Positions 2,184 through 35,325 of a stretch of 40,418 nt of DNA are shown here, one piece after another. The DNA is taken from positions 1 through 40,418 of IMG/VR virus record IMGVR_UViG_3300009285_000028. One strand, given 5' to 3'. A program made the position numbers and the translations under genes. The stretch is from a virus. The notes beneath the pieces are model-generated. The model saw nothing but the letters and a program-made list of their open reading frames with translations. It made no database searches and was not told the DNA's origin. Every line of letters begins with the position of its first letter. The stretch's first letter is position 1.

Positions 2184-2869
2184 GCCGCCTGCGCCCGCTG
2201 GGGATGTTGGACCTGCGGCCCGACCGCCGCCGCCCCGTTCTGGCCGACGTGGCCGCGCGCCAGCAGTTCTACTCCGGGGCCATCACCACCACGCACACGA
2301 CGCTCGCCGTGAACGAGACCATCACCGCGTTCACCGACGAACTCCAGCGGTTCAGGGGCGTTCAGGTCGGGGCCGTGGCAGGGGGGACCGTCACGGTTCA
2401 GGTCCAAGCCGAGGGGCGGGACCTGTTCGACGACACCACGCGGCCTGTCTCCGGTGGCGAGGTCCAGCGGCCGACAGAGCCATACCTCATCCCTGCGGGC
2501 ACGCCCATCACCACCATCATCGAAGCTACCTCGGGGGTCCCCACGGGGACGGCGGGGGTGGTCATCGAGACCGAGCCCTTCGTGGTCCACCCACGCCCCG
2601 CCTGGGTGGAGTTGCGGGGCAAAGACCGCATGTTCGCTTCCCGCCGTCGTCAAGCCGAGGCGGCCAACCGTGGGGAGAGCCTGCTGCCCAGGAACTGGCT
2701 TGGGCGGATGGGGCGGCTCGACAGGGCGAGTCCCGAACTGGCATCTCCGGTCACGGCGGGCCAGTCAGCCAAGAGGCTACTCCATCGCACACCTGCGGAC
2801 CTCGGAGGTCGCCCGCCCCACCCCTCCGCCGGGGGTGGAAAGTCGGACTGGCCTCCATCTGCGCCCTAG
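2180..2869 (+). CDS. Hypothetical virion-module protein, 229 aa
   Basis: GTG 2180 in a GTGA overlap with the upstream stop. The C-terminal third is Arg/Pro/Gly-rich, so the true extent is uncertain. The TAG stop lies inside the motif copy at 2861-2875. Confidence 0.45.
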   Translation: MSRLRPLGMLDLRPDRRRPVLADVAARQQFYSGAITTTHTTLAVNETITAFTDELQRFRGVQVGAVAGGTVTVQVQAEGRDLFDDTTRPVSGGEVQRPTEPYLIPAGTPITTIIEATSGVPTGTAGVVIETEPFVVHPRPAWVELRGKDRMFASRRRQAEAANRGESLLPRNWLGRMGRLDRASPELASPVTAGQSAKRLLHRTPADLGGRPPHPSAGGGKSDWPPSAP

Positions 2870-2875
2870 ACACGG
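2861..2875 (+). promoter_or_regulatory. Recurrent motif copy A: GCGCCCTAGACACGG
   Basis: Exact 12-mer GCGCCCTAGACA shared with 17891 and 35311. Lies 20 nt upstream of ATG 2895, ahead of the lysis block. Confidence 0.5.
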
Positions 2876-2894
2876 GGGGCATCGTGCAGGTGAG

Positions 2895-3080
2895 ATGTTC
2901 ACCCCCGCGAGCACGCGCCCAGCCGCCGATATCGCTGACCTATTCGCGGAACAGGCGGCCACCCTCGCGAAGGTCGCCGACCTCAATCAGCGACTCACCC
3001 GTCTGGTTGCCGAGGTTACGGAGCTGAACGGGCAGGTCGTGGACATCCAGCGCCGACTCGACGGGACGGACCCCAAGTGA
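2895..3080 (+). CDS. Small coiled-coil protein, 61 aa
   Basis: ATG 2895 in the frame of track ORF 2454..3080 (the upstream part looks like a shadow frame). Heptad-like LAKVADLNQRLTRLVAEVTELNGQVVDIQRRL. Stop overlaps the next GTG (GTGA). Confidence 0.5.
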   Translation: MFTPASTRPAADIADLFAEQAATLAKVADLNQRLTRLVAEVTELNGQVVDIQRRLDGTDPK

Positions 3081-3712
3081 GCGTCCGCTACCTCGTGCGG
3101 GGGACCAAGGAAGGGAACTGGTCCAAGCCGCTCCGGCTCCTCGCGGCGGTCCGCAAACTCCGCGCTTTCCTCAGGGACCGTGGCGAGGAGTTCGTCATCC
3201 ACCGGAAGGGGGGTGAGGCATCCACACCAAGGGACCTATCGGGAACGGTCGAACGCCTCAAGGCATTGCTCGCCAAAGAGCCAGTAGGTGAAACCTACAT
3301 CGTCAGAGGGAGACTCGACCACGACCCGGTGACGGTCCGCGTCATCGAAGATGCCCCCCCGCCCGCCGAGGACATCTGCGGCATCCCCGCCGTCAAGGAG
3401 TTCGCCGGATGGGTGCGGGAGAAGTGGCCCAAGGCCCGGTTCGCGGGCTCGTGCGTCTGCAAGTACTCCTCGGGAACGACGTGGAGCGACCATGCCTACG
3501 GGGCGGCCATCGACTACTTCGACACCTGGGCGGACATGGAGGCGATGAGGGACTTCGCCATCGCTAACGCCCACGCGCTAGGGGTCAAGTACGTCATCCT
3601 CGGCGACCGCATCTGGTCGGCGCTCGGAGGCTGGTCGAACTACGGCGGCAGCTACCACTATCACGTCCACGTCAGCTTCCTGCATGGACCGGAGAGGATT
3701 GCCTGTGCCTGA
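3077..3712 (+). CDS. Endolysin, zinc peptidase of the M15/LAS type
   Basis: SDHAYGAAID matches the SxHxxGxAxD (H-x6-D) signature and HYHVHVS supplies HxH. 211 aa, sits at the head of the lysis cassette. Confidence 0.8.
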   Translation: MSVRYLVRGTKEGNWSKPLRLLAAVRKLRAFLRDRGEEFVIHRKGGEASTPRDLSGTVERLKALLAKEPVGETYIVRGRLDHDPVTVRVIEDAPPPAEDICGIPAVKEFAGWVREKWPKARFAGSCVCKYSSGTTWSDHAYGAAIDYFDTWADMEAMRDFAIANAHALGVKYVILGDRIWSALGGWSNYGGSYHYHVHVSFLHGPERIACA

Positions 3713-3926
3713 GGACACGAACGGCTCGGTGCGGGTGACGCTGAAGGACGTGTACGAGGTGCTCCGGCGCGTCGAGGCGGACGTGGCGGAACTGCACTCC
3801 ATCGCCACGAAGGTCCCCGACCACGAGGCGCGCATCCGCAAGCTCGAGGCGTGGCGCTACGCCATCCCTTCTTCCGTCATCCTCGCCATCGGTGCTCTCG
3901 TCGCCGCGCTCGCGGGGTCCAAGTGA
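3705..3926 (+). CDS. Tail-anchored membrane protein, 73 aa (lysis accessory / holin-like candidate)
   Basis: GTG 3705 preceded by GGAGAGG. Coiled-coil N-terminus, then a C-terminal hydrophobic helix IPSSVILAIGALVAALAG. An alternative ATG at 3684 lacks an SD. Confidence 0.55.
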   Translation: MPEDTNGSVRVTLKDVYEVLRRVEADVAELHSIATKVPDHEARIRKLEAWRYAIPSSVILAIGALVAALAGSK

Positions 3927-4159
3927 GGCGCGTCACGGTCATGTGGCGGGACGCGACACGCACCGAGTCCCTGCCCTCTGACCTTGTGGGGAGCTTCCAT
4001 ACCGCCTGCACCCGCCACGCCTGCGCCTGGCTCGTGCGCGATGACGACAGCGGCATCGTTATCGCCATGGACGAGGCCACGTCCCCCGACGGGGCGACCG
4101 AGTATACCCACGCCTACTACATCCCGCGCGACTACATCATCTCCATCAGCCGATGGTGA
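3923..4159 (+). CDS. Hypothetical protein, 78 aa
   Basis: GTG 3923 in a GTGA overlap with the upstream stop; in frame with track ORF 3851..4159. Confidence 0.45.
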   Translation: MRRVTVMWRDATRTESLPSDLVGSFHTACTRHACAWLVRDDDSGIVIAMDEATSPDGATEYTHAYYIPRDYIISISRW

Positions 4160-4386
4160 ACCTCGACGCCGCCACGCCGGACCCCGGCAACCTGCTCACC
4201 CCCGCCGAGATGGTGGGCAACGTGACCACCATCCTTTCTAACTACGTCGAGCCCGAGCGAGCCGAGGAGATAGCGCGCCGGGCCGTGGGCATCCTCATCT
4301 CCACCGGCTACGTCGAGGAGTGGGGCCTGACCGAGGGGGGCGACCCGCTCTACGAACCGCACGCCCACATCACGTTCGTCCTTTAG
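4153..4386 (+). CDS. Hypothetical protein, 77 aa
   Basis: ATG 4153 overlaps the upstream stop; acidic, non-repetitive sequence. Confidence 0.55.
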   Translation: MVNLDAATPDPGNLLTPAEMVGNVTTILSNYVEPERAEEIARRAVGILISTGYVEEWGLTEGGDPLYEPHAHITFVL

Positions 4387-4416
4387 CGCCCTTGCGCCGC
4401 AGGGGATGCTGGATAG

Positions 4417-4447
4417 CACAAGGCCCGTGTACCACAAGGCCCGTGTA
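4417..4447 (+). repeat. Tandem direct repeat 2 x CACAAGGCCCGTGTA (16-nt period) abutting the holin SD
   Basis: 4417-4431 and 4433-4447 are identical. Followed by GTGAGGAGG and ATG 4461. Confidence 0.9.
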
Positions 4448-4460
4448 GTGAGGAGGCAAC

Positions 4461-4646
4461 ATGGATTGGAAGGACATCGTTAGCCGTGCCGGCAAGACGG
4501 CCGTGGAGGTGTTCCTGGCGGCGTTCCCGGTGAGTGCGGTCTTCGCACTTGACATCCCGGCGCTCAAGGCTGCGGCGCTCGCCGCTGGTGCTGCGGCGCT
4601 CGCCATCATCTGGAACGGAGTCCTGGAGTGGAGCCGTACACGCTGA
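4461..4646 (+). CDS. Holin, 61 aa, two hydrophobic helices (resembles r1t-type small holins of Gram-positive phages)
   Basis: Strong SD GAGGAGG 5 nt upstream. N-terminal WKDIVSRAGKTAVEVF followed by two Ala/Leu-rich TM segments and a charged C-terminus. Adjacent to the endolysin block. Confidence 0.7.
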   Translation: MDWKDIVSRAGKTAVEVFLAAFPVSAVFALDIPALKAAALAAGAAALAIIWNGVLEWSRTR

Positions 4647-4768
4647 ACCGCGCGCTCGTCCCCGACTTCTGGGGCCACTGCGCGCGGTGTGGTCACACCC
4701 TCCTGCTCGAGGACGTGTACTGCCCCTCCTGCGGGCACCAGAGGAGCTACGACGAGTACGTGAAATAG
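4628..4768 (+). CDS. Zinc-ribbon micro-protein, 46 aa
   Basis: GTG 4628. Encodes CARCGH...CPSCGH (two CxxC pairs). High GC3. Below the track length cutoff. Confidence 0.4.
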   Translation: MEPYTLNRALVPDFWGHCARCGHTLLLEDVYCPSCGHQRSYDEYVK

Positions 4769-4790
4769 CCGACGACCGGAAGGAGACCTG

Positions 4791-5045
4791 ATGCCGGGGA
4801 AACGTCAGGGACGCTCGCTCGTCGATTACGAACGCGCGAAGCGCCGTAGTGCATGTGCCGTCTGCTCGCTGCCCGACCCCCTGTCTGCGGAGGTGCGCGC
4901 GGCACGGAGCAAGAAGATACCGCAGACAACGGTGCTGGAGTGGCTCCGCGAGGAGCACGGCGTCACGCTCACCCGCGCGCAGTTCGTAGCCCATAGCGCG
5001 GCGCACCATGACCAATGGGACGAGGAGGCGGCTGCCGGTGTCTAG
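4791..5045 (+). CDS. Small basic protein, 84 aa (possible DNA-binding)
   Basis: SD GGAAGGAG upstream of ATG 4791; CAVC pair and a helical C-terminal half. Confidence 0.6.
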   Translation: MPGKRQGRSLVDYERAKRRSACAVCSLPDPLSAEVRAARSKKIPQTTVLEWLREEHGVTLTRAQFVAHSAAHHDQWDEEAAAGV

Positions 5046-6135
5046 GTCCGTCGAGGAGTTTGCTGAACAGAAAAAGCAAGCCCAGTTCGCCGAGAATCAG
5101 GAGTTCGCCCGGATGCTCCGCGCGGTGCGCGCCGAGCTAGGGGTCGTCACCGCCGAGAAGACACGCCTCGCCTCCGAGCTGGAGGCCATCGAGCGCGTCT
5201 ACGACGAGGCCCTCATCCTCCAGCCGCAGCCCGGTTGGCTCGCCAAGGGGAACGGGAAGGCCGAGAAGCACCGCGCCACCCTGGTCGCGTTCTGCTCCGA
5301 CCTGCACGCCGGTGAGGTCGTTCGCGCCGAGGAGATGGGCGGCTACAACGCCTACAACCTCCGCATCGCGGACCTGCGGCTGCAACGGTTCTTCACCAAG
5401 ACCATCGAGCTTGCCCGCACCTACTTCGCGGGCGTGACGTACGACGGCATCGTGCTCGCCCTCGGGGGAGACATGGTGTCCGGGGACATCCACGACGAGC
5501 TTGAGCAGACCAACGAGCTGTCCGTGCTCGACACGACGCTCTGGGTCGCTCCCCGGCTCGTCGCGGGCATCGAGCGGCTCGCGGAGGAGTTCGGCGCGGT
5601 GCATGTCGTGAGCGCCCCCGGCAACCACGGCCGCGATAGCAAGAAGCCCCGTCACAAGGGCCGCAGCGCCCACAACGCCGACACGCACATCGCCCGGATG
5701 GCCGCCATGTTCTTCTCGTCCTCGAACCCGTCAGCCCCCGTGACGTTCGACATCCCCGAGTCCTTCGACGTGCCGTTCAGCGTCTACGACTGGCGCTTCA
5801 ACATGGAGCACGGGGACAACATGAAGTTCACCGGAACGGCGGAAATCGGAGCCCTCGGTCCGGTCAAGCGAGGCACGCTGCGCAAGGCCAACCAGCATCA
5901 GCAGGAGGGGCATCCGTTCGACGTGAACCTTGTCGGGCACTTCCATCAGTACGTGCCGGCGACCGGCCAGGGGTTCGTGATGAATGGGTCTCTCAAGGGG
6001 TTCGATGAGTACGCGCGCTCCTGGCACCTCAAGCCGGAGCCGCCGCAGCAGGCGCTCATGGTTGTTTCCCCGGAGCATGGTCCGACGACGCAGGCCCCCG
6101 TCCTGGTGGGGGACCGGAAGGCAGAGGGCTGGTAG
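5038..6135 (+). CDS. Calcineurin-like metallophosphoesterase with an N-terminal coiled coil
   Basis: Motifs SDLHAG, GGDMVSGDIH, GNHG and GHFH in canonical order. GTG 5038 has GAGGAGG 9 nt upstream (the track start at ATG 5008 lacks an SD). Confidence 0.8.
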   Translation: MSRSVEEFAEQKKQAQFAENQEFARMLRAVRAELGVVTAEKTRLASELEAIERVYDEALILQPQPGWLAKGNGKAEKHRATLVAFCSDLHAGEVVRAEEMGGYNAYNLRIADLRLQRFFTKTIELARTYFAGVTYDGIVLALGGDMVSGDIHDELEQTNELSVLDTTLWVAPRLVAGIERLAEEFGAVHVVSAPGNHGRDSKKPRHKGRSAHNADTHIARMAAMFFSSSNPSAPVTFDIPESFDVPFSVYDWRFNMEHGDNMKFTGTAEIGALGPVKRGTLRKANQHQQEGHPFDVNLVGHFHQYVPATGQGFVMNGSLKGFDEYARSWHLKPEPPQQALMVVSPEHGPTTQAPVLVGDRKAEGW

Positions 6136-6339
6136 GTGGGCATCCGTAGCGTCGGCTGGCCGATGGACGCCGACGGCCACAACACCGAGCACAACGGCAC
6201 CTGGACGAAGTGCTGGGCGGAGGTCCAGGACGGCGTGGAGTGCTCCGTAGCGACGACGGACCCGCTCGGGTTGTGCGAGCGGCACCGCACCGAACTCGTC
6301 GAGGGGCTGGATTTGACCTCTCCGGGTAGCGGGGCGTAG
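6136..6339 (+). CDS. Hypothetical Cys-containing protein, 67 aa
   Basis: GTG 6136 immediately after the upstream TAG; high GC3. Confidence 0.5.
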   Translation: MGIRSVGWPMDADGHNTEHNGTWTKCWAEVQDGVECSVATTDPLGLCERHRTELVEGLDLTSPGSGA

Positions 6340-6351
6340 CGTCCGCCCAAG

Positions 6352-6720
6352 GTGAAGACCGAGATAGCGGGCTCCTACGGCGGCACCCAGATACACCTGC
6401 TCGACATCCACGGTGTCTCGTTCTGCGGCCTGGTCCCACGGCGCCTGCGGCCCGACTACGACGGGCGCACCGAATGGCACGAGATACTGGACTGGGAGCG
6501 GTGTCAGGTCTGCCGGGTCAATGACCCTCGCCCGTGGCCGGTCCATCGCTTTCACAAGGGGGTTCTGCTGCCAGCGCGGGAGGCAGCTCACCGAAGGCGC
6601 GAACGATGGACACGAGGTGTGGGTAAGAAGGCAGCGACGTTCCAAGCGCCCACTTCTCCACCGTTCGGGGATGCACGTAACTATGAGCAGATAGCCGCCA
6701 GGCCGCCTTCGCCTGGCTGA
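6352..6720 (+). CDS. Hypothetical protein; only the first ~65 codons look coding
   Basis: GTG 6352. High GC3 up to about 6550. The remainder overlaps the convergent HTH gene and looks like a shadow frame. Confidence 0.35.
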   Translation: MKTEIAGSYGGTQIHLLDIHGVSFCGLVPRRLRPDYDGRTEWHEILDWERCQVCRVNDPRPWPVHRFHKGVLLPAREAAHRRRERWTRGVGKKAATFQAPTSPPFGDARNYEQIAARPPSPG

Positions 6721-6787
6721 GTCTCTCCCGGCGCAAGAGGCCCCTCCACCACTCTCGAAACTCCGGGTCCTTCACCGTCGTGGGCAT
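6518..6787 (-). CDS. Helix-turn-helix regulator (Cro/CI-like candidate), 89 aa
   Basis: The only convincing minus-strand protein gene. Segment LSQAKAAWRLSAHSYVHPRTVEKWALG reads as an HTH. High GC3 at the 5' end. Start ATG 6787 (MPTTVKD). Confidence 0.6.
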   Translation of the reverse strand: MPTTVKDPEFREWWRGLLRRERLSQAKAAWRLSAHSYVHPRTVEKWALGTSLPSYPHLVSIVRAFGELPPALAAEPPCESDGPATGEGH

Positions 6788-6795
6788 GTAACCGG

Positions 6796-6824
6796 ATTCT
6801 ATCCACACCTGTTACACGGGTCGA
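6796..6824 (-). promoter_or_regulatory. Putative promoter of the HTH gene (-35 TCGACC, 17 nt, -10 TAGAAT), near-leaderless
   Basis: On the minus strand, TAGAAT (6796-6801) ends 8 nt before ATG 6787, and there is no SD. Confidence 0.4.
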
Positions 6825-7017
6825 TATCGTTCCCGCACAACCCCGCGAATCACACTCCTGTCATTCCCTGCACCTGCGACAGGGATGCAACTGCCTGCTA
6901 TGGCGATTAGGTCGGTGGCTCGCGCACGGGGGATGACTCCCGAAGACAACGCCAACCACAACCGATGGTGCTCCGCGCACCCCGCCGAAGAATGTGGGAC
7001 AAAAACGCCCCGCCTGC

Positions 7018-7047
7018 TTGACTTCCCCCGTTCTCGGGGCATAAGGT
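7018..7047 (+). promoter_or_regulatory. Putative early promoter TTGACT-18 nt-TAAGGT with the palindrome CCCCGTTCTCGGGG in the spacer
   Basis: -35 at 7018-7023, -10 at 7042-7047 (TANNNT), ATG 7055 lies 7 nt downstream, which suggests a leaderless mRNA. Confidence 0.55.
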
Positions 7048-7054
7048 TCGTTCC

Positions 7055-7489
7055 ATGGCCGCCGATAACGTGCGAAGTGGGGCTCCGACGGATGAGATTC
7101 CAGCGGTCGGATTCGTTCCCACCCCGGAGACCAACAAGCGTCCGTTCGCCGCGAGGACTGCGAGGAAATCTCCGGGCATTTCCCGGCTCCCCGCAAAGGA
7201 GGGGCGTACCGGCTCTCCATCCGAGCGAGTTGCGCCGGTCGAGGACTCCGCACCGAGACTCGGAAGTGCGGAGGGTGTAGCGGCGAACGGACCCTCCATG
7301 CCACAGGACCCGGAGACCAGCCTCTCCGAAACCCTTGCGCTGCTGCTGAGCATCGACGTAGCAGTGCATGACGTGTACCGGGGCTACATCGGTCCGATGG
7401 CGGCCGTGGACAGGATGAAAGACAACCTGCCCTCGGTCCTGCGGCTCGTGCGCTCGGCGCTGAGCGAGCTAACGGCGGGCGAGCGATGA
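7055..7489 (+). CDS. First early protein, 144 aa
   Basis: ATG at the predicted transcription start. The C-terminal 60 aa are helical and convincing; the N-terminal half is low-complexity (alternative start ATG about 7298). Confidence 0.5.
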   Translation: MAADNVRSGAPTDEIPAVGFVPTPETNKRPFAARTARKSPGISRLPAKEGRTGSPSERVAPVEDSAPRLGSAEGVAANGPSMPQDPETSLSETLALLLSIDVAVHDVYRGYIGPMAAVDRMKDNLPSVLRLVRSALSELTAGER

Positions 7490-7955: not shown

Positions 7956-8233
7956 GTCCCGGCGAGGGCCTTGTCGGCGGCACAACGACCCCCTGGTGGC
8001 GCTGCCCTGAGTGCCGGGGCGAATGGTCGTGGACCGCGCAGCGCATCCGTCACCGCTCCGACTGTCCCCGCCTCGAGGAGCAGCGTCAGCAACGCGAGGC
8101 CGATGCGCTCCGCAACCCGAGGGCACCCATCATCTCCGGCTGCGTCTTCCACGATTGGGACGGGGACCCGCTGGACTGCCCCGGCTGCATCGAGGTCGGG
8201 GACCGCGACGACTCCGTGGTGGGACCGACATGA
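7952..8233 (+). CDS. Zinc-ribbon protein, 93 aa
   Basis: ATGA overlap; CPECRG and CPGC pairs. Confidence 0.6.
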   Translation: MSPGEGLVGGTTTPWWRCPECRGEWSWTAQRIRHRSDCPRLEEQRQQREADALRNPRAPIISGCVFHDWDGDPLDCPGCIEVGDRDDSVVGPT

Positions 8234-8862
8234 GCGCCGTCCTCGTCACCAAGGTCGAGCCCCGCAACCGCGAGGGCAAGAAGCCCGACGCCAGCGTGTT
8301 CCTGTCCGATGGCACGAAGGCATGGTGCGGGGACCAGGAAGCCGCTGTAGCCCTGAAGGTGGGAGAACCCCTACCGCAGGGCTGGGAACGCTCTGAGGGC
8401 GACTACGGGCCACGTGTGAGCCCCCCTCGCAAGGGCGGAGGTGGCGGTGCCACGGCGTGGCGCAACACGAAGGAAGGCGCGGCCTACGAACGCGAGGGCT
8501 GGGCCATCAAGGAAGAGCGCAGCGACCGTCGCACGGCACTCATGCAGGCCGTGGCATTCTGCGCACCAGACCCCAGCGGCGAGGTGATGCTCGGTTTCGC
8601 CGACGACTTCTACGCATGGCTCCGCATAACCTCCGGGTCGGTGCCCCCAACCCCGCTGGGTACGACCGCGACGGCCCGGACCCCTACGGCCGCAGGGAAG
8701 CCTCATCCCTCCCCTGCGCCCAAGCCGAGTGGTAGCGGCGGGGATGCCGCCATCCCTGCCGCTCCTCGGTGCCCGGTCTGTGGCTCGGAAGACATCGGGT
8801 ACTCACCGAAGCGTGGGGTGAACGTGTGCGGAGCGTGTAACCAGGACTGGAAGAACGAATGA
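8230..8862 (+). CDS. Hypothetical protein, 210 aa, with a Pro-rich linker and C-terminal zinc ribbon
   Basis: ATGA overlap. C-terminus reads CPVCGSEDIGYSPKRGVNVCGAC. Confidence 0.65.
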   Translation: MSAVLVTKVEPRNREGKKPDASVFLSDGTKAWCGDQEAAVALKVGEPLPQGWERSEGDYGPRVSPPRKGGGGGATAWRNTKEGAAYEREGWAIKEERSDRRTALMQAVAFCAPDPSGEVMLGFADDFYAWLRITSGSVPPTPLGTTATARTPTAAGKPHPSPAPKPSGSGGDAAIPAAPRCPVCGSEDIGYSPKRGVNVCGACNQDWKNE

Positions 8863-12622: not shown

Positions 12623-12991
12623 GTGAGCCACGGCCTCTACTCGACCTATCAACACGGATGCCGGTGTGGCCCGTGTACGAGGGCCGTGGCCGACTACGGC
12701 AAGGACTGGCGCGCACGCGCGGTCGAGTACCAGTGGCGCAAGCTCCCACCGGCACCGCTTGCCGCCATCTTGGAGAACGAGGCGAAGATGCGCTCCCGGC
12801 AGGGGCAGCAGGCCAGCGGCAACGTGGTCCTGGCCCGCGAATACTCCCTGCGCTACGGGGGAGCCGTGATGTCCCACGTCAAGTTCCTCGAGCGCCTAGC
12901 CCAGAACCACTACGTCTGGGAGCAGACCGCCGACCGCTGGCTCACGCTCATCGGTACTCACCTCGACGCCCTGTATCCGAGGGGCGCATGA
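12623..12991 (+). CDS. Protein with an N-terminal HGxxSxYxxGCRCxxC motif (actinophage-type DNA-binding candidate)
   Basis: GTG 12623 with AAGGAG upstream; HGLYSTYQHGCRCGPCTRA. Confidence 0.6.
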   Translation: MSHGLYSTYQHGCRCGPCTRAVADYGKDWRARAVEYQWRKLPPAPLAAILENEAKMRSRQGQQASGNVVLAREYSLRYGGAVMSHVKFLERLAQNHYVWEQTADRWLTLIGTHLDALYPRGA

Positions 12992-13455
12992 AGCCGATAC
13001 GCGGCTCATTCCCGTGGACGATACGCCGGGGCGCTCCACGCCACGACTTCCTTGAGCTGCTTCACCGCAAGGCGTGGCACGCCGAGGCCCTGTGTGCCGA
13101 CTCCTCGCGCGCGGACTTCCGCTGGTTCTTCTCGGAGCGTTCGAGCGAGCAGCGGGCCGTCAAGGGCTTCACCGAGGCGGAGGCGCGAGCCAAGACCTGC
13201 TGCGCCCAGTGTCCGGTGCGCAAGGACTGCCTCCAAGAGGGCCTGTACGAACCCGCCGGCATCTGGGGCGGAACCCTCCCCACGCAACGCTCGCGGTATC
13301 GGCACACGGCCGACTGCGAGCCTGGCACCAAGTGGCACCCCCGGAACCACATGGCCTGCAACCCCGACTGGATGCAGGTGGCGCACCTGTTGGTAGAGAT
13401 GGAGGTAGAGGCCCAGGAACATGGCCTCGTACCCCGAACAGAGGAGGTCGCGTAA
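12988..13455 (+). CDS. whiB: WhiB-like (Wbl) Fe-S transcription factor with a ~70-aa C-terminal extension
   Basis: ALC...CCAQCPVRKDC (C-Xn-C-X2-C-X5-C) followed by GIWGG. Confidence 0.8.
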   Translation: MKPIRGSFPWTIRRGAPRHDFLELLHRKAWHAEALCADSSRADFRWFFSERSSEQRAVKGFTEAEARAKTCCAQCPVRKDCLQEGLYEPAGIWGGTLPTQRSRYRHTADCEPGTKWHPRNHMACNPDWMQVAHLLVEMEVEAQEHGLVPRTEEVA

Positions 13456-14849: not shown

Positions 14850-14874
14850 GGGGCGGGGGCGGCTTCGTTGAGTC

Positions 14875-14985
14875 AAGGAGCGGTGGGACTCGAACCCACG
14901 ACCTCCGGGACTCGAGGGTCTCGCACGGGGGCGACCCGCACGGTTGCCCTTGCTCCCGGCGCTCTGCCAACTGAGCTACGCTCCC
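14875..14985 (-). tRNA. tRNA-like gene, 111 nt, with a 38-nt insertion in the anticodon loop (candidate loop CUCGAGU, anticodon CGA)
   Basis: The reverse complement folds as acceptor GGGAGCG/CGCUCCU, D arm GCUC-AGUUGGCA-GAGC, anticodon stem CCGGG/CCCGG, variable AGGUC, T arm GUGGG-UUCGAGU-CCCAC. There are 45 nt instead of 7 between the anticodon-stem halves. Confidence 0.6.
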
Positions 14986-15080: not shown

Positions 15081-15115
15081 GAGGCTCGAAGGACTAGACG
15101 AGAGGAGGCATCGAG

Positions 15116-16712: not shown

Positions 16713-17002
16713 GTGAGAGCGGAACGGCATACGGAGCACGGTACGACGGCGGTACGGTGGTGGAGGTGCTGGAGTATGCAGCGGGTGACCTTTACCTCGC
16801 AGCGATGGGCGAGGGCAATCCGTTGTCCGCTTCAGATGATGTGCGCGCCGCCATCCCCCGCGCAGAAGCGATGGAGCGGGTGGTGGAGGCGGCGAAGGCT
16901 TGGCGTGCGGGTTCAACCGCCGCGACAGACCAGGGCCTGGTCGGGGCGCTCAATGAGCAGCTCGCTGCCTCCACTCCCCCTCGAAGAGGAGACGAAGGTT
17001 GA
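16709..17002 (+). CDS. Hypothetical protein, 97 aa; paralogue of 12271..12579
   Basis: ATGA overlap; AEAMERVVEAAKA block. Confidence 0.55.
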   Translation: MSESGTAYGARYDGGTVVEVLEYAAGDLYLAAMGEGNPLSASDDVRAAIPRAEAMERVVEAAKAWRAGSTAATDQGLVGALNEQLAASTPPRRGDEG

Positions 17003-17169
17003 TGTTCGCCTGCGACAAGGATTACGACGCGAACCCGGACCTCAAGATGCTCTGTCCGCGTTCGTACGGAGCATGTGAGGTCTGTGGCAAGGTGACCCTT
17101 TGCTACGACGTTCCCGGAGCGTGGGCCTCCAGGGCCGTCCTTCGGGGCGGTCCTTGCGTTATGCCCTAG
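17002..17169 (+). CDS. Cys-rich micro-protein, 55 aa; last gene of the early block
   Basis: TGATG junction; 7 Cys including CEVCG. The stop TAG lies inside motif copy B. Confidence 0.45.
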   Translation: MFACDKDYDANPDLKMLCPRSYGACEVCGKVTLCYDVPGAWASRAVLRGGPCVMP

Positions 17170-17175
17170 ACAGAG
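17161..17175 (+). promoter_or_regulatory. Recurrent motif copy B: atGCCCTAGACAGAG
   Basis: The 10-mer GCCCTAGACA is shared with all copies. The downstream CCTGAG(C/G)GC sits at the same offset as in copy C. Confidence 0.45.
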
Positions 17176-17831
17176 GTGGAAGCCTGAGCGCAGTCCTGCA
17201 GGCGAGCAGGAGTCGGCGGGTGGGCCGGTCGGCCACCGAAGAGAGCCAGTATCCCCACGCCACCCCGGCAACGCGAACCGAACCCGCGTTCACCGTGGGC
17301 TTGCACGTCCTGAGGGATCTTGAGGACCATGAGAGGCTGAAGCGTGTAGGGCTCGTGGCCCTCCTTTGTTGAGGGTTCAGGGGTGCGGGGTAGGGGAGAG
17401 CTCGAGTCGAGTGGAGCGTCATCCATCCCTCATCCTGGGTTAGGAGGATGCCACCCGATACGCCACCCCGCCGTCTTGCCCGTGACCGCACCTACCGAGC
17501 GTGAGCCTCGTGCCTAGCTTACCGTAATCACCCTTATGGGCAGGTGTTTGCCCTGCTCAGCGCAGTGATGCGCATGGTGGGTGCTGATACGCACAGTGAG
17601 ATGGGGGCAGTAGCACTACGAACTTGCAGTGCTCTGTCCAACCCACCCCATGCCCCTGCGTACCCCATCTGACCAGGGGGTTTGCACCCGGTCCGTAAAA
17701 AGGAGGGTGTGGTGTTGTGTAGTGTGTCCCGCGTTCGTACGGTGAGAAATCGTTCTGAGTCGGCGTGAAGCGGAAGGAAACGTCGCCTAGCGGTTCGTGC
17801 CTGCGGCCCACTACCGAACCCTTGCTTCCGG

Positions 17832-17877
17832 GGCAGTGCCTTTCCCCCACGGGTCTGTCTGGGGGTCCTGCACTGCC
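17832..17877 (+). other. Extended two-tier hairpin (8 bp + 6 bp) just upstream of motif copy C
   Basis: GGCAGTGC/GCACTGCC pairs outside CCCCCA/TGGGGG, with a 10-nt apical loop and no U-tail. Confidence 0.6.
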
Positions 17878-17890
17878 GCAGTGACGTAGT

Positions 17891-17905
17891 GCGCCCTAGA
17901 CAGGG
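17891..17905 (+). promoter_or_regulatory. Recurrent motif copy C: GCGCCCTAGACAGGG
   Basis: 91 nt upstream of the first late ORF (17996). Confidence 0.5.
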
Positions 17906-17995
17906 GCGGTTTCCTGAGGGCGGGGTCGGTGGAAGACCCTTGTTCGCGTACGTGCGGTCCTCGGGGAAGTGCTGTGGAACGAAAGGGGCTCCGGT

Positions 17996-18103
17996 ATGGG
18001 CAAGAAGAGGGGCGGGGGTAAGCCCATCAAGGGCAAGACCACGAAGAAGCGCACCGGGGAGCGGGTCACGTACCCCAAGGGCCGGCCGCCCAAGCCGAGG
18101 TGA
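17996..18103 (+). CDS. Ultra-basic micro-protein, 35 aa (9 K, 5 R, 7 G; KGRPPKPR AT-hook-like end)
   Basis: 34 of 35 codons end in G/C. Sequence MGKKRGGGKPIKGKTTKKRTGERVTYPKGRPPKPR. Confidence 0.55.
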   Translation: MGKKRGGGKPIKGKTTKKRTGERVTYPKGRPPKPR

Positions 18104-18111
18104 GGTCCCTG

Positions 18112-18225
18112 ATGCCGGCGAAGAAGAAGATGACCCCCAAGCGCAAGGGCATGCACAAGATGCCTGGCGGCAAGATGATGACCGACGCCCAGATGAAGGC
18201 CATGAAGAAGAAGGGCATGAAGTAG
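18112..18225 (+). CDS. Met/Lys-rich micro-protein, 37 aa (9 M, 12 K)
   Basis: SD GAGGTGAGG upstream. 36 of 37 codons end in G/C. Sequence MPAKKKMTPKRKGMHKMPGGKMMTDAQMKAMKKKGMK. Confidence 0.55.
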   Translation: MPAKKKMTPKRKGMHKMPGGKMMTDAQMKAMKKKGMK

Positions 18226-25200: not shown

Positions 25201-28200
25201 CATGGGCGAGTCACCAACGCACGCGCTCGGCGGGCTCATGGGCATCATGGAGAACAACCCGAACCTGCGCCTCGCGCAGCTCGGGACTCAGGAGGTCTCT
25301 ATCGCCAGCGGCCCCGCCTTCTGGCGTTCCTACGCGGACACGCTGTCCCGGCAGTACGCCTCGCCCTCGGTGCGTGTTCAGTTGCGATACATGGACCACC
25401 CCGCTTCCGCGCTTGCCGCCATCGAGGCGAGCGACGACGGGGCCTGGTGGCTCGCGCACGTCGCCGAGTCGGACTTCACCCCGCTGGAGGCCATCGCTCG
25501 CAAGCAGGAGCAGTTGCGCCAGCTCCTCGGCTCGGGCGAGGACGCGGACCTAGTTCGCACCGCACTCACTCGTGGTGCAGTCTCGGTAGACGGCGAGGTC
25601 ATCGAGGTCGGCTCTGATGGGTTCGCGGCGTTCCTGGAGAAGCTGGCGAACGAGGGGCGCTGGACGCCGGGCATCTCCACGCTCCCGCGCTCCGCCGGGG
25701 ACTACCTGCCCGTATCGCGCATGAGCGCGGCGACCGAAGTCACGGGGCGTGCGTTCTCGTTCTTCGCCACCGCGCCGGATAACGCGCTGGCCCGCAGCCC
25801 GCTCTGGCGGCAGATGGCCGCACGGGAGTTCCGCGACCTCGTACGGCGCGGCTACAGCAAGGAACGTGCGCTCGAGATGGCCCGCGCCTGGGCTGCCAGG
25901 GGCACCCGCGACACACTGTTCACCATCGGGGCGCGCACCCCCGGTGAGGTGTGGTTGCGCAACGTCAACCCGTTCTTCCCCGCCTACCGCGAGTTGGCCG
26001 ACACCTGGCTCATCCGCGCCGGTCAGCGGCTCGGCAACAGTTCGTGGGCGCTTGGCGTGGGCAAGATGGGGCGGCGTGTCGATGTCTGGATGGACTTCTT
26101 CTCCAACATGGGTCTCATCCGCCGGGATGAGCGGGGCAAGATGTATGTGCCCATCCCCGGCCTGGGCGGCATCATCTCCGCGTTCACCGGAGCCAACGTC
26201 GAGTTCGATTCGAGGGCTCCGGCCGACACGTTCGCGGGCGTGCTGCCGACCCCCATCGGGGTCATGGACAAGGACGAGGAAGGCAACCCGCTGCCCTGGT
26301 ACAAGCGCCTCCAGGGGCTTCTGCCGACGCTCGGCGGTCCCGCTACGTTCGTCCTCGGTGCCATGAACGACCTCTTCGGCGGGGAACTCGACGCCGCCGA
26401 GAACTGGCTGACGCTCTACGGCACGGACGCATCGCAGGGTCCCACGTCCATCGACCGCGCACTCGAGGCGTTCGGGTTCGTCGCTCCGTGGATGACCGCC
26501 ACGACCCGCGAGATGCACGAGGCAACGCGGACCTGGGCCGTGGTCGATGGTATGCGCATCGCCGCCAGCGAGACACCCGCCCCGAGCTACGTGGAGTTCG
26601 ATGCCGACGGCGATGGGGAACTCACCACCGACGAGATGCAAGCCTACGCGGAAGCCGACCGCCAGTGGAAGCTGGACCTGCTGAACCGTGGAGAGCGGTA
26701 CGCGCAGCGGTTCTACCTGCTCCGCTCCGTCATGAGCGCCGTCTTGCCGTTCTCCGTCGCCTCGTCCGATGAGGCCAAGCAGCAGATGAGCGCCGTCTGG
26801 ACGATGCTGAACGCCATCCCCGACAAGGCGGGGGGAGGCGAGTTCAAGTCCGCCCTGCTCGACGCCATCCTGGCCGAGTACCCCCAGTTGGGCGCGTACA
26901 TGACCGGCAAGACCCAGGACTTCCGACCGGGCATCGTGAAGCCCGAGGAGAACCTGGAGGAGTGGATGCAGGCGGTCAAGAACGGGGAGGTCAAGGTCCG
27001 CAACGCTACGGACTGGGCCGTGTTCGCCTCGGGCATGAACAGCTACTCCATCTTCCAGTCGCGCATCGACGCCATCTTCGAGGAGGCCGGCCCGGTCGCG
27101 GCCGATTGGCTGGTCAACTTTGCCGGCAAGGAAGAGGTCGCCCAGGAGAAGGCGAAGTGGCAGGTGTTCCTCGACGCCTCCGAGGTACGGGAGAACTGGC
27201 TGCTGCCCGACCAGACCAAGGGCTTCGCCACGATGCTCGATGACTACTTCGACCTCAAAGCCATCCACGAGGGGGAGGCCACCGACCTCACGCTGGAGCA
27301 GCAGCGGCTCCTTGACCTCACCGGGCTGATGCGGGAGTTCTCGCTGTCGCTCACGCCCAACGAGCCGAGCACGGATGACTACTACAAGCTCCGGGACCAG
27401 GCGTACGCGGCGCTCGGCCCCCCCAAGGGCGAGATAGGCAAGGGCGTGGACTGGTGGTTCTCCACGGTCAACACCCCCTACTACGACGAGCTGCACGCGC
27501 TGGCCGACACGCTCGATGCCACGGAGCCGAGGAACCAGGGTCCCATCTACGCCCAGATGAACGCGGTGCGCAACGCCTACTACCACGGCTGGACCGACCC
27601 CAAGCATCCCGAGTGGGGCGAGTTCGTCTCACCGGAGGAGTATGGCTTCATCGCGCTCACGCCCGAGGAGCGGACGCATCAGGTCGCGGCGTGGGCCAAC
27701 CTGCCGGCCGGGTTCCTCTCGCAGTTCCAGCGGGAGCAGGTCGGCTACGACATCCCCGAGGACAAGCAGGACAAGGCATCGGACTTCGTGGCGATGGTGG
27801 ACCGCGCCAACCGCAAGTTCGAGAAGTACGTGGTGCAGCACGACCTGTCCTACGCCTCGACGGCCATCAAGGATGCGCGTGCGAAGCTCGACGCGGCGTT
27901 CGCCGAAATCGCAGACGAGCGCGGGCTGAGCGCCTTCTGGAAGCAGGCCAACATGGCCGAATACCAGCGGGTGGACCTGGCGCTGAACCTCTCGGAGACA
28001 TCGGCCTCGTGGAAGCACGTTACGCGCCTCGCCACCTCCCTGCGGAACTACATCGAGTCGCAGGATTACGTCCCCGGCGGCTCATCTGCGCTCGCCGAGC
28101 AGGGGCGGACGTGGTTCGTCAACATGGTCACGAAGGTGCGCGGGAACGACGCGGGGTTCGATGACCTGATGAGCGACCTTCAGGTGGCACTGGGAGACAA

Positions 28201-28291
28201 GGGCTCGCCCCTTGCCGACCAAGAGATAGTTGAGACGCTGTTCTTCGACGTATGGAGCACATCAAACTCGTTCTACCTGGACAGGAGGTAA
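22247..28291 (+). CDS. Giant virion-module protein, 2014 aa (internal/ejection protein candidate) with an EF-hand-like loop
   Basis: Uninterrupted 6045-nt ORF with high GC3 throughout. DADGDGELTTDE is encoded at 26600-26635. Confidence 0.85.
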   Translation: MPILFEGPVEPEAPEEPKAPRPTDVPAPRRRGEFAPAVATHTASAAELLANASAIQAQRVASVFEGVNDTALYQVPDTLVWTGVQENSTVLTASVNDAASFFARIYGGDNLAAFMTADVFGDPVQTERTMATLAYLRGFATTAYARDGTPIFQAGGSGSQERGMELLRQVLANSGSTAGLTEAERAQVGTLAQTLYTNLQTLPDTGTSLAFKTAVAVGATQDVTLALSADEVATLERYVQAELGQLGGLRQTGETPTLASVGIEQVRQLNDGVIVLDRDFAKANPAEAYAVETWLHQNYPELEIQYDRQGVVGSLLDKFGMGVDYLTAPIAAGAMQLKEFGEQLSNSPEDRARMLARADELEQQLMRGEVPEADVERTLSDIALLRDIGTVEVGWQQYQDDVFRGTNARIAGFGFADTIMRSSGMMPGDPGYGATYAVVGLLSNIIADPFNIGLLGLTGARSARLIATLEKGVVPADVGRGIVRATAYRALAKTPEEMLVTRPMMQAADRLYEMRTALGPDEFAGMLAGFYHDERGLGGGAEAAHLLSQATSSEDMAIAMVSTQFPIAGGGLPIEPLMERMNEATRLLDREAELPGLINASQDPALVPGLQAELDVLRSQHTDLIAQRGLYSSIVEGTEWVRPVRQVFSSRQIRRLERLTGERLDARMRAFEAATASVEGLPADVLRAGPDAIAAHIAANPNVEATTAILMRRARRAFTPSGAGEVLTFPHTSDQAAAVANLFKKGRLLADHREESFARILGLGRRFGLSDSRVEELVRPWVAGELTGPSASYRWWTKTWESFVDESPLLGAAGKEKLAKMWDTPLEGRPTGLIETRGASGFAEYEPVWYKSEVEPVTGLLERKPLPDAEAFMFQTWTAPSDEAITAYISHAQRTVNEWRKTGGWGKRSISLAHLRLAQLWSGWNHLWRTGALIFRPIAWPARVMGEEMVRIATFGYSSLVNNPIEWLLSTKMGTRLFKSTDFALMGESPTHALGGLMGIMENNPNLRLAQLGTQEVSIASGPAFWRSYADTLSRQYASPSVRVQLRYMDHPASALAAIEASDDGAWWLAHVAESDFTPLEAIARKQEQLRQLLGSGEDADLVRTALTRGAVSVDGEVIEVGSDGFAAFLEKLANEGRWTPGISTLPRSAGDYLPVSRMSAATEVTGRAFSFFATAPDNALARSPLWRQMAAREFRDLVRRGYSKERALEMARAWAARGTRDTLFTIGARTPGEVWLRNVNPFFPAYRELADTWLIRAGQRLGNSSWALGVGKMGRRVDVWMDFFSNMGLIRRDERGKMYVPIPGLGGIISAFTGANVEFDSRAPADTFAGVLPTPIGVMDKDEEGNPLPWYKRLQGLLPTLGGPATFVLGAMNDLFGGELDAAENWLTLYGTDASQGPTSIDRALEAFGFVAPWMTATTREMHEATRTWAVVDGMRIAASETPAPSYVEFDADGDGELTTDEMQAYAEADRQWKLDLLNRGERYAQRFYLLRSVMSAVLPFSVASSDEAKQQMSAVWTMLNAIPDKAGGGEFKSALLDAILAEYPQLGAYMTGKTQDFRPGIVKPEENLEEWMQAVKNGEVKVRNATDWAVFASGMNSYSIFQSRIDAIFEEAGPVAADWLVNFAGKEEVAQEKAKWQVFLDASEVRENWLLPDQTKGFATMLDDYFDLKAIHEGEATDLTLEQQRLLDLTGLMREFSLSLTPNEPSTDDYYKLRDQAYAALGPPKGEIGKGVDWWFSTVNTPYYDELHALADTLDATEPRNQGPIYAQMNAVRNAYYHGWTDPKHPEWGEFVSPEEYGFIALTPEERTHQVAAWANLPAGFLSQFQREQVGYDIPEDKQDKASDFVAMVDRANRKFEKYVVQHDLSYASTAIKDARAKLDAAFAEIADERGLSAFWKQANMAEYQRVDLALNLSETSASWKHVTRLATSLRNYIESQDYVPGGSSALAEQGRTWFVNMVTKVRGNDAGFDDLMSDLQVALGDKGSPLADQEIVETLFFDVWSTSNSFYLDRR

Positions 28292-30334: not shown

Positions 30335-30340
30335 CGCACT

Positions 30341-30355
30341 GCGCCCTTGACAGGG
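30341..30355 (+). promoter_or_regulatory. Recurrent motif variant E: GCGCCCTTGACAGGG
   Basis: 14 of 15 identical to copy C (A to T change creates TTGACA). Lies in the 142-nt gap upstream of scaffold and capsid. Confidence 0.5.
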
Positions 30356-30476
30356 ATTCCATGCTGTAGACGCGCAAGGAACCCTTGCCTGGGCCTCCGT
30401 GGCCGCAGTGCCCTCCTTGCAGAACCGGCGTGTATCCACACGCCCCGGCCCTGCGGCAATCAGGAGGTCAACTTCC

Positions 30477-32232: not shown

Positions 32233-32254
32233 CCACAAGGAAGGAACGTGCAAC

Positions 32255-33121: not shown

Positions 33122-33318
33122 ACTACCTGAAGCAAGGACGGCTCGACAGCGGGACGGATGAGGTCCGGGAGATGGCCCGGCCTCTGACGCCGCGCTCCGA
33201 GCGGCCCAGGTCTACGTGGGGCTCCCTGGCCGTGTCGTTGCAGACGGTCAGGGGGCTCTGCCCAAACGGAAGGTGCCTGAAGAAGGAAGGTCACGCCAGC
33301 GGTTGCTGGCCCACGTAA
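33118..33318 (+). CDS. Small basic protein, 66 aa (doubtful)
   Basis: GTGA overlap; in frame with track ORF 32842..33318. Confidence 0.35.
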   Translation: MNYLKQGRLDSGTDEVREMARPLTPRSERPRSTWGSLAVSLQTVRGLCPNGRCLKKEGHASGCWPT

Positions 33319-33350
33319 GGACCGCCTCCGGTCAAGAGTAGGAGAGGAAG

Positions 33351-34037: not shown

Positions 34038-34528
34038 TTGCCCCGGTCGCCAACCGCCGCTACACCAAAGCCGAGATAGCGCGTCTGCGTGAGTTGAACC
34101 CCGGCTTCACGATGCCGGGGCACGTCATGCGCTATGACGCCGACGGCGGGGTGTCGTTCGTACCCTGGCGGCAGGCTGGTGGAGGCCACGGATGGGCGGG
34201 GGACCCCGGAGCCCCCGCCCGTGGCTTCGTGGCGACATGGGACGAGGACCCGTGGCCGAAGGACCCCATCCGCCGACGCACGCCCCAGCAGAGGGTTGAC
34301 AGTCTCATGCTCAAGTTCATCGACGACTGCAAGCGCACGGGGACGGTCCCCGGCCTCTCGGACGAGCGCATCCGCGCCATCGTGGGGGAGGACTGGAAGG
34401 ACGGGCAGGCTCGGGGTATCACGGCCGAGGACGTGCGAGCGGTGGCCCAGCACTTCCTCGCCGATGCCGGGGCGAAATACGAAGCGTCCGAGTACAAGAA
34501 GGTTACCCGAACCGCGCCGAGTGACTGA
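34034..34528 (+). CDS. Hypothetical protein, 164 aa
   Basis: GTGA overlap. Confidence 0.6.
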   Translation: MIAPVANRRYTKAEIARLRELNPGFTMPGHVMRYDADGGVSFVPWRQAGGGHGWAGDPGAPARGFVATWDEDPWPKDPIRRRTPQQRVDSLMLKFIDDCKRTGTVPGLSDERIRAIVGEDWKDGQARGITAEDVRAVAQHFLADAGAKYEASEYKKVTRTAPSD

Positions 34529-34529
34529 G

Positions 34530-34676
34530 ATGAAGAGGCAACGGCGATACAAACTCAGAAGGCATGAGTATGAGAAGGACCGGGTTGCTCGGTATTGGGA
34601 TATCCGTCTCATCCAGGGTCGGCGCTGGAACGTCCAAGTTCAGGTCCATCGGATTCACGACCGGACACTCCCATGA
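34530..34676 (+). CDS. Very basic micro-protein, 48 aa
   Basis: ATG 2 nt after the upstream stop; ATGA overlap with the next gene. About 54% G+C by hand count. Confidence 0.4.
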   Translation: MKRQRRYKLRRHEYEKDRVARYWDIRLIQGRRWNVQVQVHRIHDRTLP

Positions 34677-35308
34677 GCAAGGTCGCCATCGGCATGATTC
34701 ACGACGCAACGATGGATGCCCGGTTCGTGCGTTGCCTGACCGGGGTGAACGCCGCTCGTCGGCCGGGCCTGGAGACGCTGTACGTGGAATCCGGTGGGGG
34801 CTCGCTCGACCGGGGACGGAACCTCCTGGTGCAGAAGTTCCTCCAGAACTCGACCGACGACTGGTTCCTCCAGGTGGACACCGACATGTTCTTCTCCGTC
34901 GAGAACTACGACCGCCTGCTGGAGACCGCCGAGGGGCGGCAGATAGTGAGCGGCGTCTACTTCGCCAACGAGCGCCCGCCCCGCCCCGCCATGCACCGCT
35001 GGGACGAGACCGGCCACGGCGTCGCCGTGACCGAGTGGGAGGAACACGAGGTACTGGACGTGGACGGGTGCGGGGCTGGGTTCCTGCTCGCCCACCGGGA
35101 TGTCTACGAGAAGATGGACCACCCCGAGGACTACCGAGGCCGGGCGGGGTCGTGGTTCACCCAGGACAAGCTCGGCCCGGCCGGTCAGCTCTTGAACGAG
35201 GACTCCGGGTTCTGCCTGCGCGCCCAGGAGCACGGGTTCCGCGTCTACGTGGACACCGATTGCTTCGTGGGCCACATCAAGAATCGCATCCTCGGGGTGG
35301 ACCTGTAA
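34673..35308 (+). CDS. GT-A fold glycosyltransferase (family-2-like), 211 aa
   Basis: DxD-type VDTDM and NEDSGFCLRAQEHG (ED..FC) motifs. Confidence 0.75.
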   Translation: MSKVAIGMIHDATMDARFVRCLTGVNAARRPGLETLYVESGGGSLDRGRNLLVQKFLQNSTDDWFLQVDTDMFFSVENYDRLLETAEGRQIVSGVYFANERPPRPAMHRWDETGHGVAVTEWEEHEVLDVDGCGAGFLLAHRDVYEKMDHPEDYRGRAGSWFTQDKLGPAGQLLNEDSGFCLRAQEHGFRVYVDTDCFVGHIKNRILGVDL

Positions 35309-35310
35309 GA

Positions 35311-35325
35311 GCGCCCTAGACACGG
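35311..35325 (+). promoter_or_regulatory. Recurrent motif copy D: GCGCCCTAGACACGG
   Basis: Identical 15-mer to copy A. Starts 3 nt after the glycosyltransferase stop, upstream of the tail block. Confidence 0.5.

Follow-up and report, generated by a model that had tools for sequence, protein, structure and literature searches.

A repeated box held in register with a -10-like element at operon boundaries of an uncultured phage: a putative middle/late promoter class

What is the function of a 15-nucleotide (nt) motif that recurs in a single orientation between the gene blocks of an uncultured phage? The question arises from a 40,418-nt stretch of viral DNA, IMG/VR record IMGVR_UViG_3300009285_000028 (the window, meaning the whole stretch that was analyzed), which was recovered from a groundwater metagenome, has a G+C content of ~65% and carries nearly all of its genes on the + strand. 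An original prediction, made from this sequence, described five co-oriented copies of the motif and proposed either a phage-specific late promoter or activator site or a stoperator-like repressor site. The 15-base repeat is genuine, conserved and of biological significance, and with a probability of roughly 70% it represents the upstream half of a bipartite class of phage middle/late promoters for use by the host RNA polymerase, with a box taking the place of the -35 element. Box and -10-like hexamer keep a strict 8-base-pair (bp) phase at non-homologous loci, their sequence architecture is conserved among related phages, and the pair is restricted to non-early operons.

The motif and its fixed downstream partner

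Four exact matches to the motif (GCGCCCTWGACASGG) are present in the window, all on the + strand (at 2861, 17891, 30341 and 35311), while none was found in 100 dinucleotide shuffles, the enrichment over a shuffled background that had been named beforehand as a check. The 12-mer GCGCCCTAGACA was counted three times, in agreement with the original prediction. The copy at 17161 (ATGCCCTAGACAGAG) has three mismatches, and at that stringency nine matches were found versus 8.5 expected, which alone is not significant; a position matrix built from 21 instances in related phages only recovered it as the best site in the window (22.1 bits), with the other four copies at 15.4-20.6 bits and the next-best window sites at ~10 bits or less, a level also reached by shuffles. 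All five co-oriented copies were thus borne out. The strong copies lie on the + strand, are intergenic or overlap stop codons, and are positioned relative to these stops and to the next genes as had been described. Two weaker relatives fared less well: one near 14852 on the minus strand scored 10.1 bits, within noise, though it has the A/T pair described below, and CTAGACGAGAGG at 15093 found no support.

A blastn search with 7 kb of the window against 50,697 phage records gave no matches. The nearest capsids are those of Pelagibacter podophages (~30-35% identity) and the nearest terminases those of Streptomyces phages (~25%). Capsid and terminase searches of IMG/VR and the JGI metagenomes yielded ~40 related contigs with 61-85% capsid identity, among them a 39-kb relative, here called C180, put together from contig IMGVR_UViG_3300036859_000180 (loci L002, L019 and L054); box-bearing relatives were compared as partial genomes. 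In the relatives, the core nGCCCT(A/T/G)GAC lies on the gene strand, in intergenic gaps and at syntenic boundaries: before the scaffold and capsid genes (11 contigs), before small open reading frames (ORFs) and the terminase gene, before tail genes, and immediately past the homolog of ORF 2180..2869. Seven such sites are present in C180; they mirror the five of the window plus a weak sixth at 4388. The conservation at syntenic boundaries on which the original prediction had staked its proposal was thus found.

The decisive signal came from two single bases outside of the repeat. Thirty-two non-redundant intergenic core matches from the window and its metagenomic relatives were aligned on the G of GCCC(TWGAC) (W, A or T), which was set as x0. 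The flanking columns carry ~0 bits of information except for A at x18 (29/32) and T at x22 (26/32). Both bases are present in 24 of the 32 instances, as compared with three or fewer for A-N3-T at any other offset from x10 to x49, and in none of nine core matches located in coding regions, mostly at Ala-Leu-Asp codons (Fisher p = 7e-5). In the window itself, A at +18 is found in four of the five copies and T at +22 in all five, contrary to the earlier statement that no -10 element stands at a fixed distance. Weaker column preferences were seen for C at x21, (C/T)G at x14-15, T at x-3 and C at x-1, and the stretches x9-17 and x23-28 are unconserved. When the five copies were aligned together with their flanks, no further shared RNA or DNA element was seen beyond the core.

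A(-11) and T(-7), three bases apart, are the flipped-out bases of the -10 hexamer of sigma-70-family promoters. Judged by sequence, the A18/T22 pair is this A(-11)/T(-7) pair, which places the putative hexamer at x17-22 and the start of transcription near x29. The conserved box thus consists of T (x-3), C (x-1) and GCCCT(A/T/G)GAC(A), and is followed by eight unconserved bases and the hexamer nAnnCT at x17-22; in string form, the bipartite pattern is GCCCTNGAC-N9-A-N3-T. A pattern of 14 specified bases matches just three of the 32 known instances. As in mycobacterial promoters, (C/T)G often stands at -15/-14, ahead of the hexamer.

The region around the predicted start site, x29, bears a signature of its own, with a pyrimidine at x28 (-1) in 24/32 instances and a purine at x29 (+1) in 23/32; among the window copies, C occupies -1 in four and T in copy 1, and a purine occupies +1 in all five. 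Start codons (ATG or GTG) of ORFs with 45 codons or more cluster at x29 (five), x30 (two), x31 (two) and x32 (one), versus ~0.3 per offset elsewhere, and include that of a 628-codon terminase-like ORF in the relative L007 and the ATG of the gene that follows the C180 ortholog of window copy 1. Such a pile-up is as expected if these mRNAs are leaderless. Mycobacteria likewise produce leaderless mRNAs and use TANNNT hexamers without a -35 element, CGN or TGN before the -10, a purine at +1 and a pyrimidine at -1 (PMC3898074). With a start at x29, the box would extend from -32 to -21 and overlap in part the place of a -35 element.

In the relative L036, two overlapping boxes stand 11 bp apart before tail genes (3852-3872; GCCCTAGACGCGCCCTTGAC), and the upstream box alone is in register with A-N3-T. 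This arrangement looks like a promoter in the course of duplication or turnover.

Promoters and operons of the window

Activation of the genes for lysis, packaging, the head and the tail is the most likely role of the five promoters. Box promoter 1 (2860..2892, + strand; 19.5 bits) has the box T-N-C-GCCCTAGACA at 2860-2872 (x0 at 2863), the TAG of which is the stop codon of ORF 2180..2869, and the -10 hexamer CATCGT at 2880-2885. From the predicted start at ~2892, its mRNA would be near-leaderless with respect to the ATG at 2895, and it heads an operon (2895-6339) of putative lysis genes and an exonuclease gene. It is syntenic with the site at C180:28664, where the homolog of ORF 2180..2869 lies directly upstream and a leaderless ATG stands at +29.

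Box promoter 2 (17160..17192, +; box at 17160-17172, x0 at 17163), the highest-scoring copy at 22.1 bits, has the hexamer AAGCCT at 17180-17185 after TGG and a predicted start at ~17192. The TAG of its box is the stop codon of ORF 16999..17169. The promoter stands just behind a 10-bp hairpin capped by a UUCG loop and is directed into the non-coding region at 17.2-17.9 kb. Its counterpart, C180:401, lies ~620 nt upstream of the C180 terminase promoter, and copy 2 is kept in tandem ~620-730 bp upstream of copy 3 in both genomes. No Rfam match was found at E <= 1 between 17100 and 18000, and the predicted 184-nt copy-2 transcript folds no better than shuffles. The original prediction had placed the motif at the boundaries of late-gene blocks; the siting at boundaries holds, while the word "late" is too narrow, as the copy 1 operon includes an exonuclease gene and copy 2 enters a non-coding region of ~700 nt. 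The full 830-nt non-coding stretch between the early and late genes (17170-17996) contains a block, CGTGCCTAGCTTACCGTAATCACCC, at ~17509-17533 that is common to the window and the syntenic region of C180 (L002, ~690-715); this stretch, into which box promoter 2 is directed in both phages, may act as a packaging site or as an origin of replication.

Box promoter 3 (17890..17922, +; x0 at 17893; 15.4 bits) is the sole window copy without A(-11), having the hexamer TTTCCT at 17910-17915 and a predicted start at ~17922. A strong hairpin (z -2.1) lies upstream, and the syntenic promoter of C180 (L002:1025) has the related hexamer CTTCCT. Copy 3 heads two tiny basic ORFs, the terminase and portal genes, an ORF of 2014 amino acids and the ORFs beginning at 28295 and 29315. 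The two tiny ORFs (17997-18103, 35 amino acids; 18100-18225, 41 amino acids), which are very basic, are rich in Lys, Arg, Gly and Pro, and have similar counterparts at the same place in C180 (L002, ~1100-1325), may stand in for a small terminase subunit or encode DNA-binding peptides. The 2014-amino-acid ORF (22247-28291), located between the portal and scaffold genes, has relatives that are 22-41% identical and matches no Pfam or PHROG family; its residues 1157-1236 weakly match the SF3 helicase P-loop of Rep40/Rep68 (E ~0.03).

Box promoter 4 (30340..30372, +; x0 at 30343; 20.0 bits), with the hexamer CATGCT at 30360-30365 and a predicted start at ~30372, heads the operon that runs from the scaffold and capsid genes to a glycosyltransferase-like gene. 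Its predicted leader of ~105 nt extends to the scaffold ATG at 30477, which stands behind an AGGAGG ribosome-binding site and takes the place of the GTG at 30399 that had been chosen earlier. Orthologs of this promoter were found in L004, L006, L007, L009, L010, L019, L022, L023, L031, L039 and L042. Copies 2 and 4 share the sequence GTATCC(C/A)CACGCC...CCCGGC (17249-17270 and 30430-30450), 88-91 nt after the start of the motif, which does not follow the other copies; the copy-4 version forms a perfect 7-bp hairpin, GGCGTGT-ATCC-ACACGCC.

Box promoter 5 (35310..35342, +; x0 at 35313; 20.6 bits; hexamer AACACT at 35330-35335; predicted start at ~35342) is syntenic with C180:19386 and L036:3852 and heads the tail block, which begins at 35386 and continues across the circular junction to 2869. 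Bases 1-77 of the window are repeated exactly at 40342-40418, inside coding sequence. This 77-nt terminal duplication is an assembler overlap of a genome that is circular or terminally redundant, and it implies a circularly closed assembly with 40,341 bp of unique sequence. Within the tail block, a 619-amino-acid ORF (36498..38357) contains four in-frame repeats of 123-144 nt that are 69-75% identical (36887-37328) and probably encodes a tail fibre or spike with repeated domains.

A possible degenerate sixth copy (4385..4417, +; GCCCTTGCG, hexamer GATGCT) scores 10.1 bits, which is at noise level on score alone. It is intergenic, directly follows the stop codon of ORF 4153..4386 and points the same way as the genes; by synteny, its position roughly matches that of C180:32660 (21.1 bits), a site that likewise precedes the block containing the exonuclease gene and the ORF at 6352..6720.

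Canonical promoters, of the pattern TTGACN-N17/18-TAnnnT, form a contrasting class that is confined to the early/regulatory region of the window, where, as in the early region of C180, no box was found. A rightward early promoter (7018..7057, +; TTGACT-N18-TAAGGT) precedes a leaderless ATG at 7055 (ORF 7055..7489), and a leftward promoter (6785..6824, - strand; TCGACC-N17-TAGAAT) precedes the leaderless ATG at 6787 of a gene for a helix-turn-helix (HTH) protein (6787..6518). A third promoter of canonical type (6313..6354, +; TTGACC-N18-TAGCGT) lies directly before the GTG at 6352 of a gene for a small Cys/His-containing protein (6352..6720), which is kept in the box-bearing relatives C180 and L055. 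The divergent region between the HTH gene and the rightward promoter contains an inverted repeat, TCCCTG-N9-CAGGGA (6858-6878), which is unlike the box and may serve as an operator bound by the HTH protein. The early region has a single clear minus-strand gene, a tRNA gene at 14875-14985, which had been noticed as tRNA-like in the original prediction and proved real by Rfam (54 bits). It has 45 nt at the position of the 7-nt anticodon loop, i.e. an insertion or intron of ~38 nt, and ARAGORN reports no tRNA there.

The two classes meet at one locus. Several sister phages with ~61-73% capsid identity (L046/L008, L037, L044 and L005) carry canonical sigma-A-type promoters at the site of box promoter 4: TTGACA-N17-TATAAT in L046, TTGACG-N17-TAGGGT in L037, cccTTGACT-N17-TATCAT in L044 and TTGACT-N17-AAGGTT in L005. 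Their presence at the syntenic scaffold site marks this site as a promoter site. It appears from these sequences that box and canonical promoters have replaced one another in evolution, which suggests that the two modes of recognition interconvert.

Known promoter systems and competing explanations

A literature search found nothing relevant on the motif string or on comparable actinophage promoters, and the closest parallels come from other phages. Middle promoters of phage T4 carry a MotA box, (a/t)(a/t)(a/t)TGCTTtA, that is centred at -30, lies 12 +/- 1 bp from the -10 element and replaces the -35 element, and about half of them carry TGn (PMC2988021). The box promoters resemble this MotA/AsiA system of "sigma appropriation" in pairing a host-type -10 element with a phage box that replaces the -35, and in a switch that would follow host-type early promoters (PMC2988021), but differ in having the core GCCCTWGAC, a different sequence centred at ~-25/-26 with an 8-bp gap, and in their actinobacterial host. 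Pfam scans of ~47 ORFs revealed no MotA or AsiA family; remote homologs are possible. The late promoters of phage P1, as Lehnherr et al. reportedly described them in 1991/92, have a 9-bp inverted repeat near -22 in place of a -35 element, together with a -10 element. Like these, the box promoters combine a -10 element with a conserved element in the spacer region, and several copies head late operons; unlike the P1 repeat, the core common to the family, GCCCT(A/T/G)GAC, lacks dyad symmetry, a CCCT...AGGG symmetry being confined to some window copies, and the host phylum differs. Late transcription of P1 depends on the phage activator Lpa (PMC8198154).

Further similarity is seen with the -10-only leaderless promoters of actinobacterial sigma-A, known from M. 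tuberculosis and predicted as SigA-like in Cluster O phages, which share A(-11)/T(-7), (C/T)GN, a purine at +1, a pyrimidine at -1 and start codons at +1 (PMC3898074, PMC4351075). Those promoters have no conserved upstream box, and T(-12), which belongs to their consensus, is not conserved in the box promoters. The element is best described as belonging to a kind already known, the class-specific phage promoter in which a box replaces the -35 element, with an unusual position of the box.

Four other explanations were considered. One is that the box is an operator or stoperator-like site: the -10-only sigma-A promoters would be self-sufficient, and a phage repressor, e.g. the HTH protein (6787..6518), would block the polymerase from -32 to -21. 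Stoperators of Cluster A phages (L5 gp71 type) are asymmetric sites of ~13 bp that occupy short intergenic gaps and are oriented with transcription (PMC9283540), and the box, an asymmetric actinophage site of 10-13 bp, resembles them in all of these respects. Promoters without a -35 element do work in mycobacteria (PMC3898074), and the HTH protein is kept in the box-bearing C180 and L055. Against this, Cluster A phages, which are temperate and possess an immunity repressor and an integrase, have >20 stoperators per genome, mostly not tied to promoters, whereas the window has five sites (possibly six) and C180 seven, each keeping its register with a -10 element and a predicted start. Furthermore, every copy is phase-locked to its -10 element by the invariant 8-bp gap at non-homologous loci, which suggests that recognition of the box is coupled to the binding of polymerase. 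Pfam and PHROG scans of the window ORFs detected neither an integrase nor any other lysogeny function, and no box is present at the HTH gene's own divergent promoter region. An operator is thus considered unlikely, and of the two functions originally offered, the promoter or activator site is retained while the stoperator-like repressor site is disfavored. A host alternative sigma factor or host DNA-binding protein might instead read the box and -10 element without any phage factor, the phages having copied a host promoter class. The box is kept even where the capsid-to-tail module is nearly all that the phages have in common (L007 and L040 versus the window), and no common non-structural phage protein was found; the relatives were compared as partial genomes, however, so that this comparison does not establish its absence. 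The close relatives L046, L037 and L005 have ordinary promoters at the same site, and to our knowledge no actinobacterial sigma consensus has the form of the box promoter. This explanation is improbable to much the same degree as an operator.

The two remaining explanations fit the data poorly. The original prediction had likened T(A/T)GACA to a -35 hexamer, and the box does hold a -35-like T(T/A/G)GAC; in L044, CCCTTGACT does stand 17 bp upstream of TATCAT. Yet this sequence stands exactly one helical turn nearer to the -10 element than a true -35 element: TWGACA lies 7 bp from the -10 hexamer, exactly 10 bp too close, and its second base may be G, so that it is not a -35 element. A-N3-T occurs at a spacing of 16-19 bp in 1/32 instances, which excludes an ordinary -35 element, as compared with 24/32 at 7 bp; no -35-like sequence is present at the proper position, and a sigma-70 promoter scan finds none of the copies. 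When the box promoters are compared with canonical sigma-70/sigma-A promoters, the A(-11)/T(-7) pair and an apparent start ~7 nt downstream agree, while the spacing between TWGACN and A-N3-T does not. Standard sigma-A promoters are accordingly a very improbable explanation. Even less probable is a role of the motif as the promoter for an RNA polymerase of the phage's own, or as a signal at the RNA level (e.g. a terminator, processing site or start-associated sequence). The 2014-amino-acid ORF with no assigned function among the virion genes might be cited for a polymerase, but no ORF has a polymerase signature or family match, and the conserved positions are split between -32 to -21 and -11/-7, with x9-17 and x23-28 unconserved, instead of being contiguous to +1, unlike the promoters of T7-type single-subunit polymerases. 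As for an RNA signal, hairpins precede copies 1-3 only, with modest z-scores, and no hairpin or covarying structure is common to the copies. For most copies the next start codon is 45-135 nt away, and they are thus not translation signals. The start-associated sequences of Cluster K phages adjoin the start codon and take in the ribosome-binding site; the box differs in that the next start codon is 29 to ~135 nt away and long leaders have ribosome-binding sites of their own.

Several observations weigh against a bipartite promoter. T(-12) is present in just 6/32 instances, which is atypical for TANNNT promoters, an objection tempered by the use of CATGAT and AAGGTT hexamers in canonical promoters of the relatives. 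Many of the 32 instances are mutually orthologous and hence not fully independent. The phage is uncultured and its start sites are predicted from sequence, and a repressor operator overlapping self-sufficient -10-only promoters would give much the same picture. Finally, Pfam and PHROG scans of ~47 ORFs gave no activator or sigma factor candidate, just the WhiB-like protein and a weak HTH match, and no non-structural family is common to all box-bearing genomes, compared as partial contigs.

What may read the box

The host of the phage matters to the search for a box-binding factor. A protein of the window (12988..13455) contains a WhiB domain (PF02467, E = 6e-12 by Pfam), which points to an actinobacterial host; a search for prophages or hosts with the window capsid gave no match in 185,579 species genomes. 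The same WhiB-like protein had been suggested as a candidate binder but is an unlikely one, as no WhiB signature was found in C180, with its seven box promoters, or in L055, both of which bear the box. Peptide patterns revealed no WhiB relative in IMG/VR. The protein has a C-terminal extension of ~55 residues with additional Cys and His residues (HTADCEPGTKWHPRNHMAC), located after its GIWGG turn.

Three early products are kept in the window, C180 and L055: the HTH protein, for which the match to PF01381 is weak (E = 0.068), the small Cys/His protein (6352..6720) and part of 8011..8862. None of the three was found in the partial contigs of the distant box-bearing phages L040 and L007, in which hidden Markov models of the first two gave no match, and for the Cys/His protein a homolog search returned 0 matches and a PDB search nothing meaningful. 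Phylogenetic profiling for a box-linked early protein, also based on partial contigs, found structural families alone to be common. A host factor is a possible binder.

In the proposed bipartite mechanism, host sigma-A polymerase would first use the canonical promoters at ~6.3-7.05 kb to express the early genes. At the box promoters, which lack a -35 element, polymerase would then be recruited or stabilized by a factor that binds the box; this factor is most likely a phage protein made early, but might be a host protein or an alternative sigma factor. The -10 half would be read by the host sigma-A polymerase, and the box by something else that replaces -35 recognition. Copies 1, 3, 4 and 5 would thereby drive the lysis/recombination, terminase-portal-giant ORF, scaffold-capsid and tail operons, and the mRNAs of several of these would be leaderless. 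In this scheme, we infer from sequence the start of transcription, the identity of the polymerase, the need for a factor and the timing. A more specific version may be proposed tentatively, and with less confidence than the bipartite promoter itself: an actinobacterial-phage counterpart of sigma appropriation, in which a small protein without detectable similarity to MotA, AsiA, Lpa or sigma factors would read the 10-12-bp box and couple sigma-A polymerase to -35-less, often leaderless promoters.

The late-gene promoters of actinophages are poorly understood, and the present analysis provides a base-precise set of predicted promoters, starts and operons for a lineage of uncultured actinobacterial phages that has no cultured relative. 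The finding that two bases beyond the repeat were decisive also indicates that strong repeats are worth aligning together with their flanks across relatives. The fixed phase between a box at -32 to -21 and a -10 element of host type implies that some factor takes over the role of -35 recognition. If encoded by the phage, this factor would represent a new way of redirecting actinobacterial RNA polymerase, and the factor and its promoter might offer a compact orthogonal expression pair for high-GC hosts.

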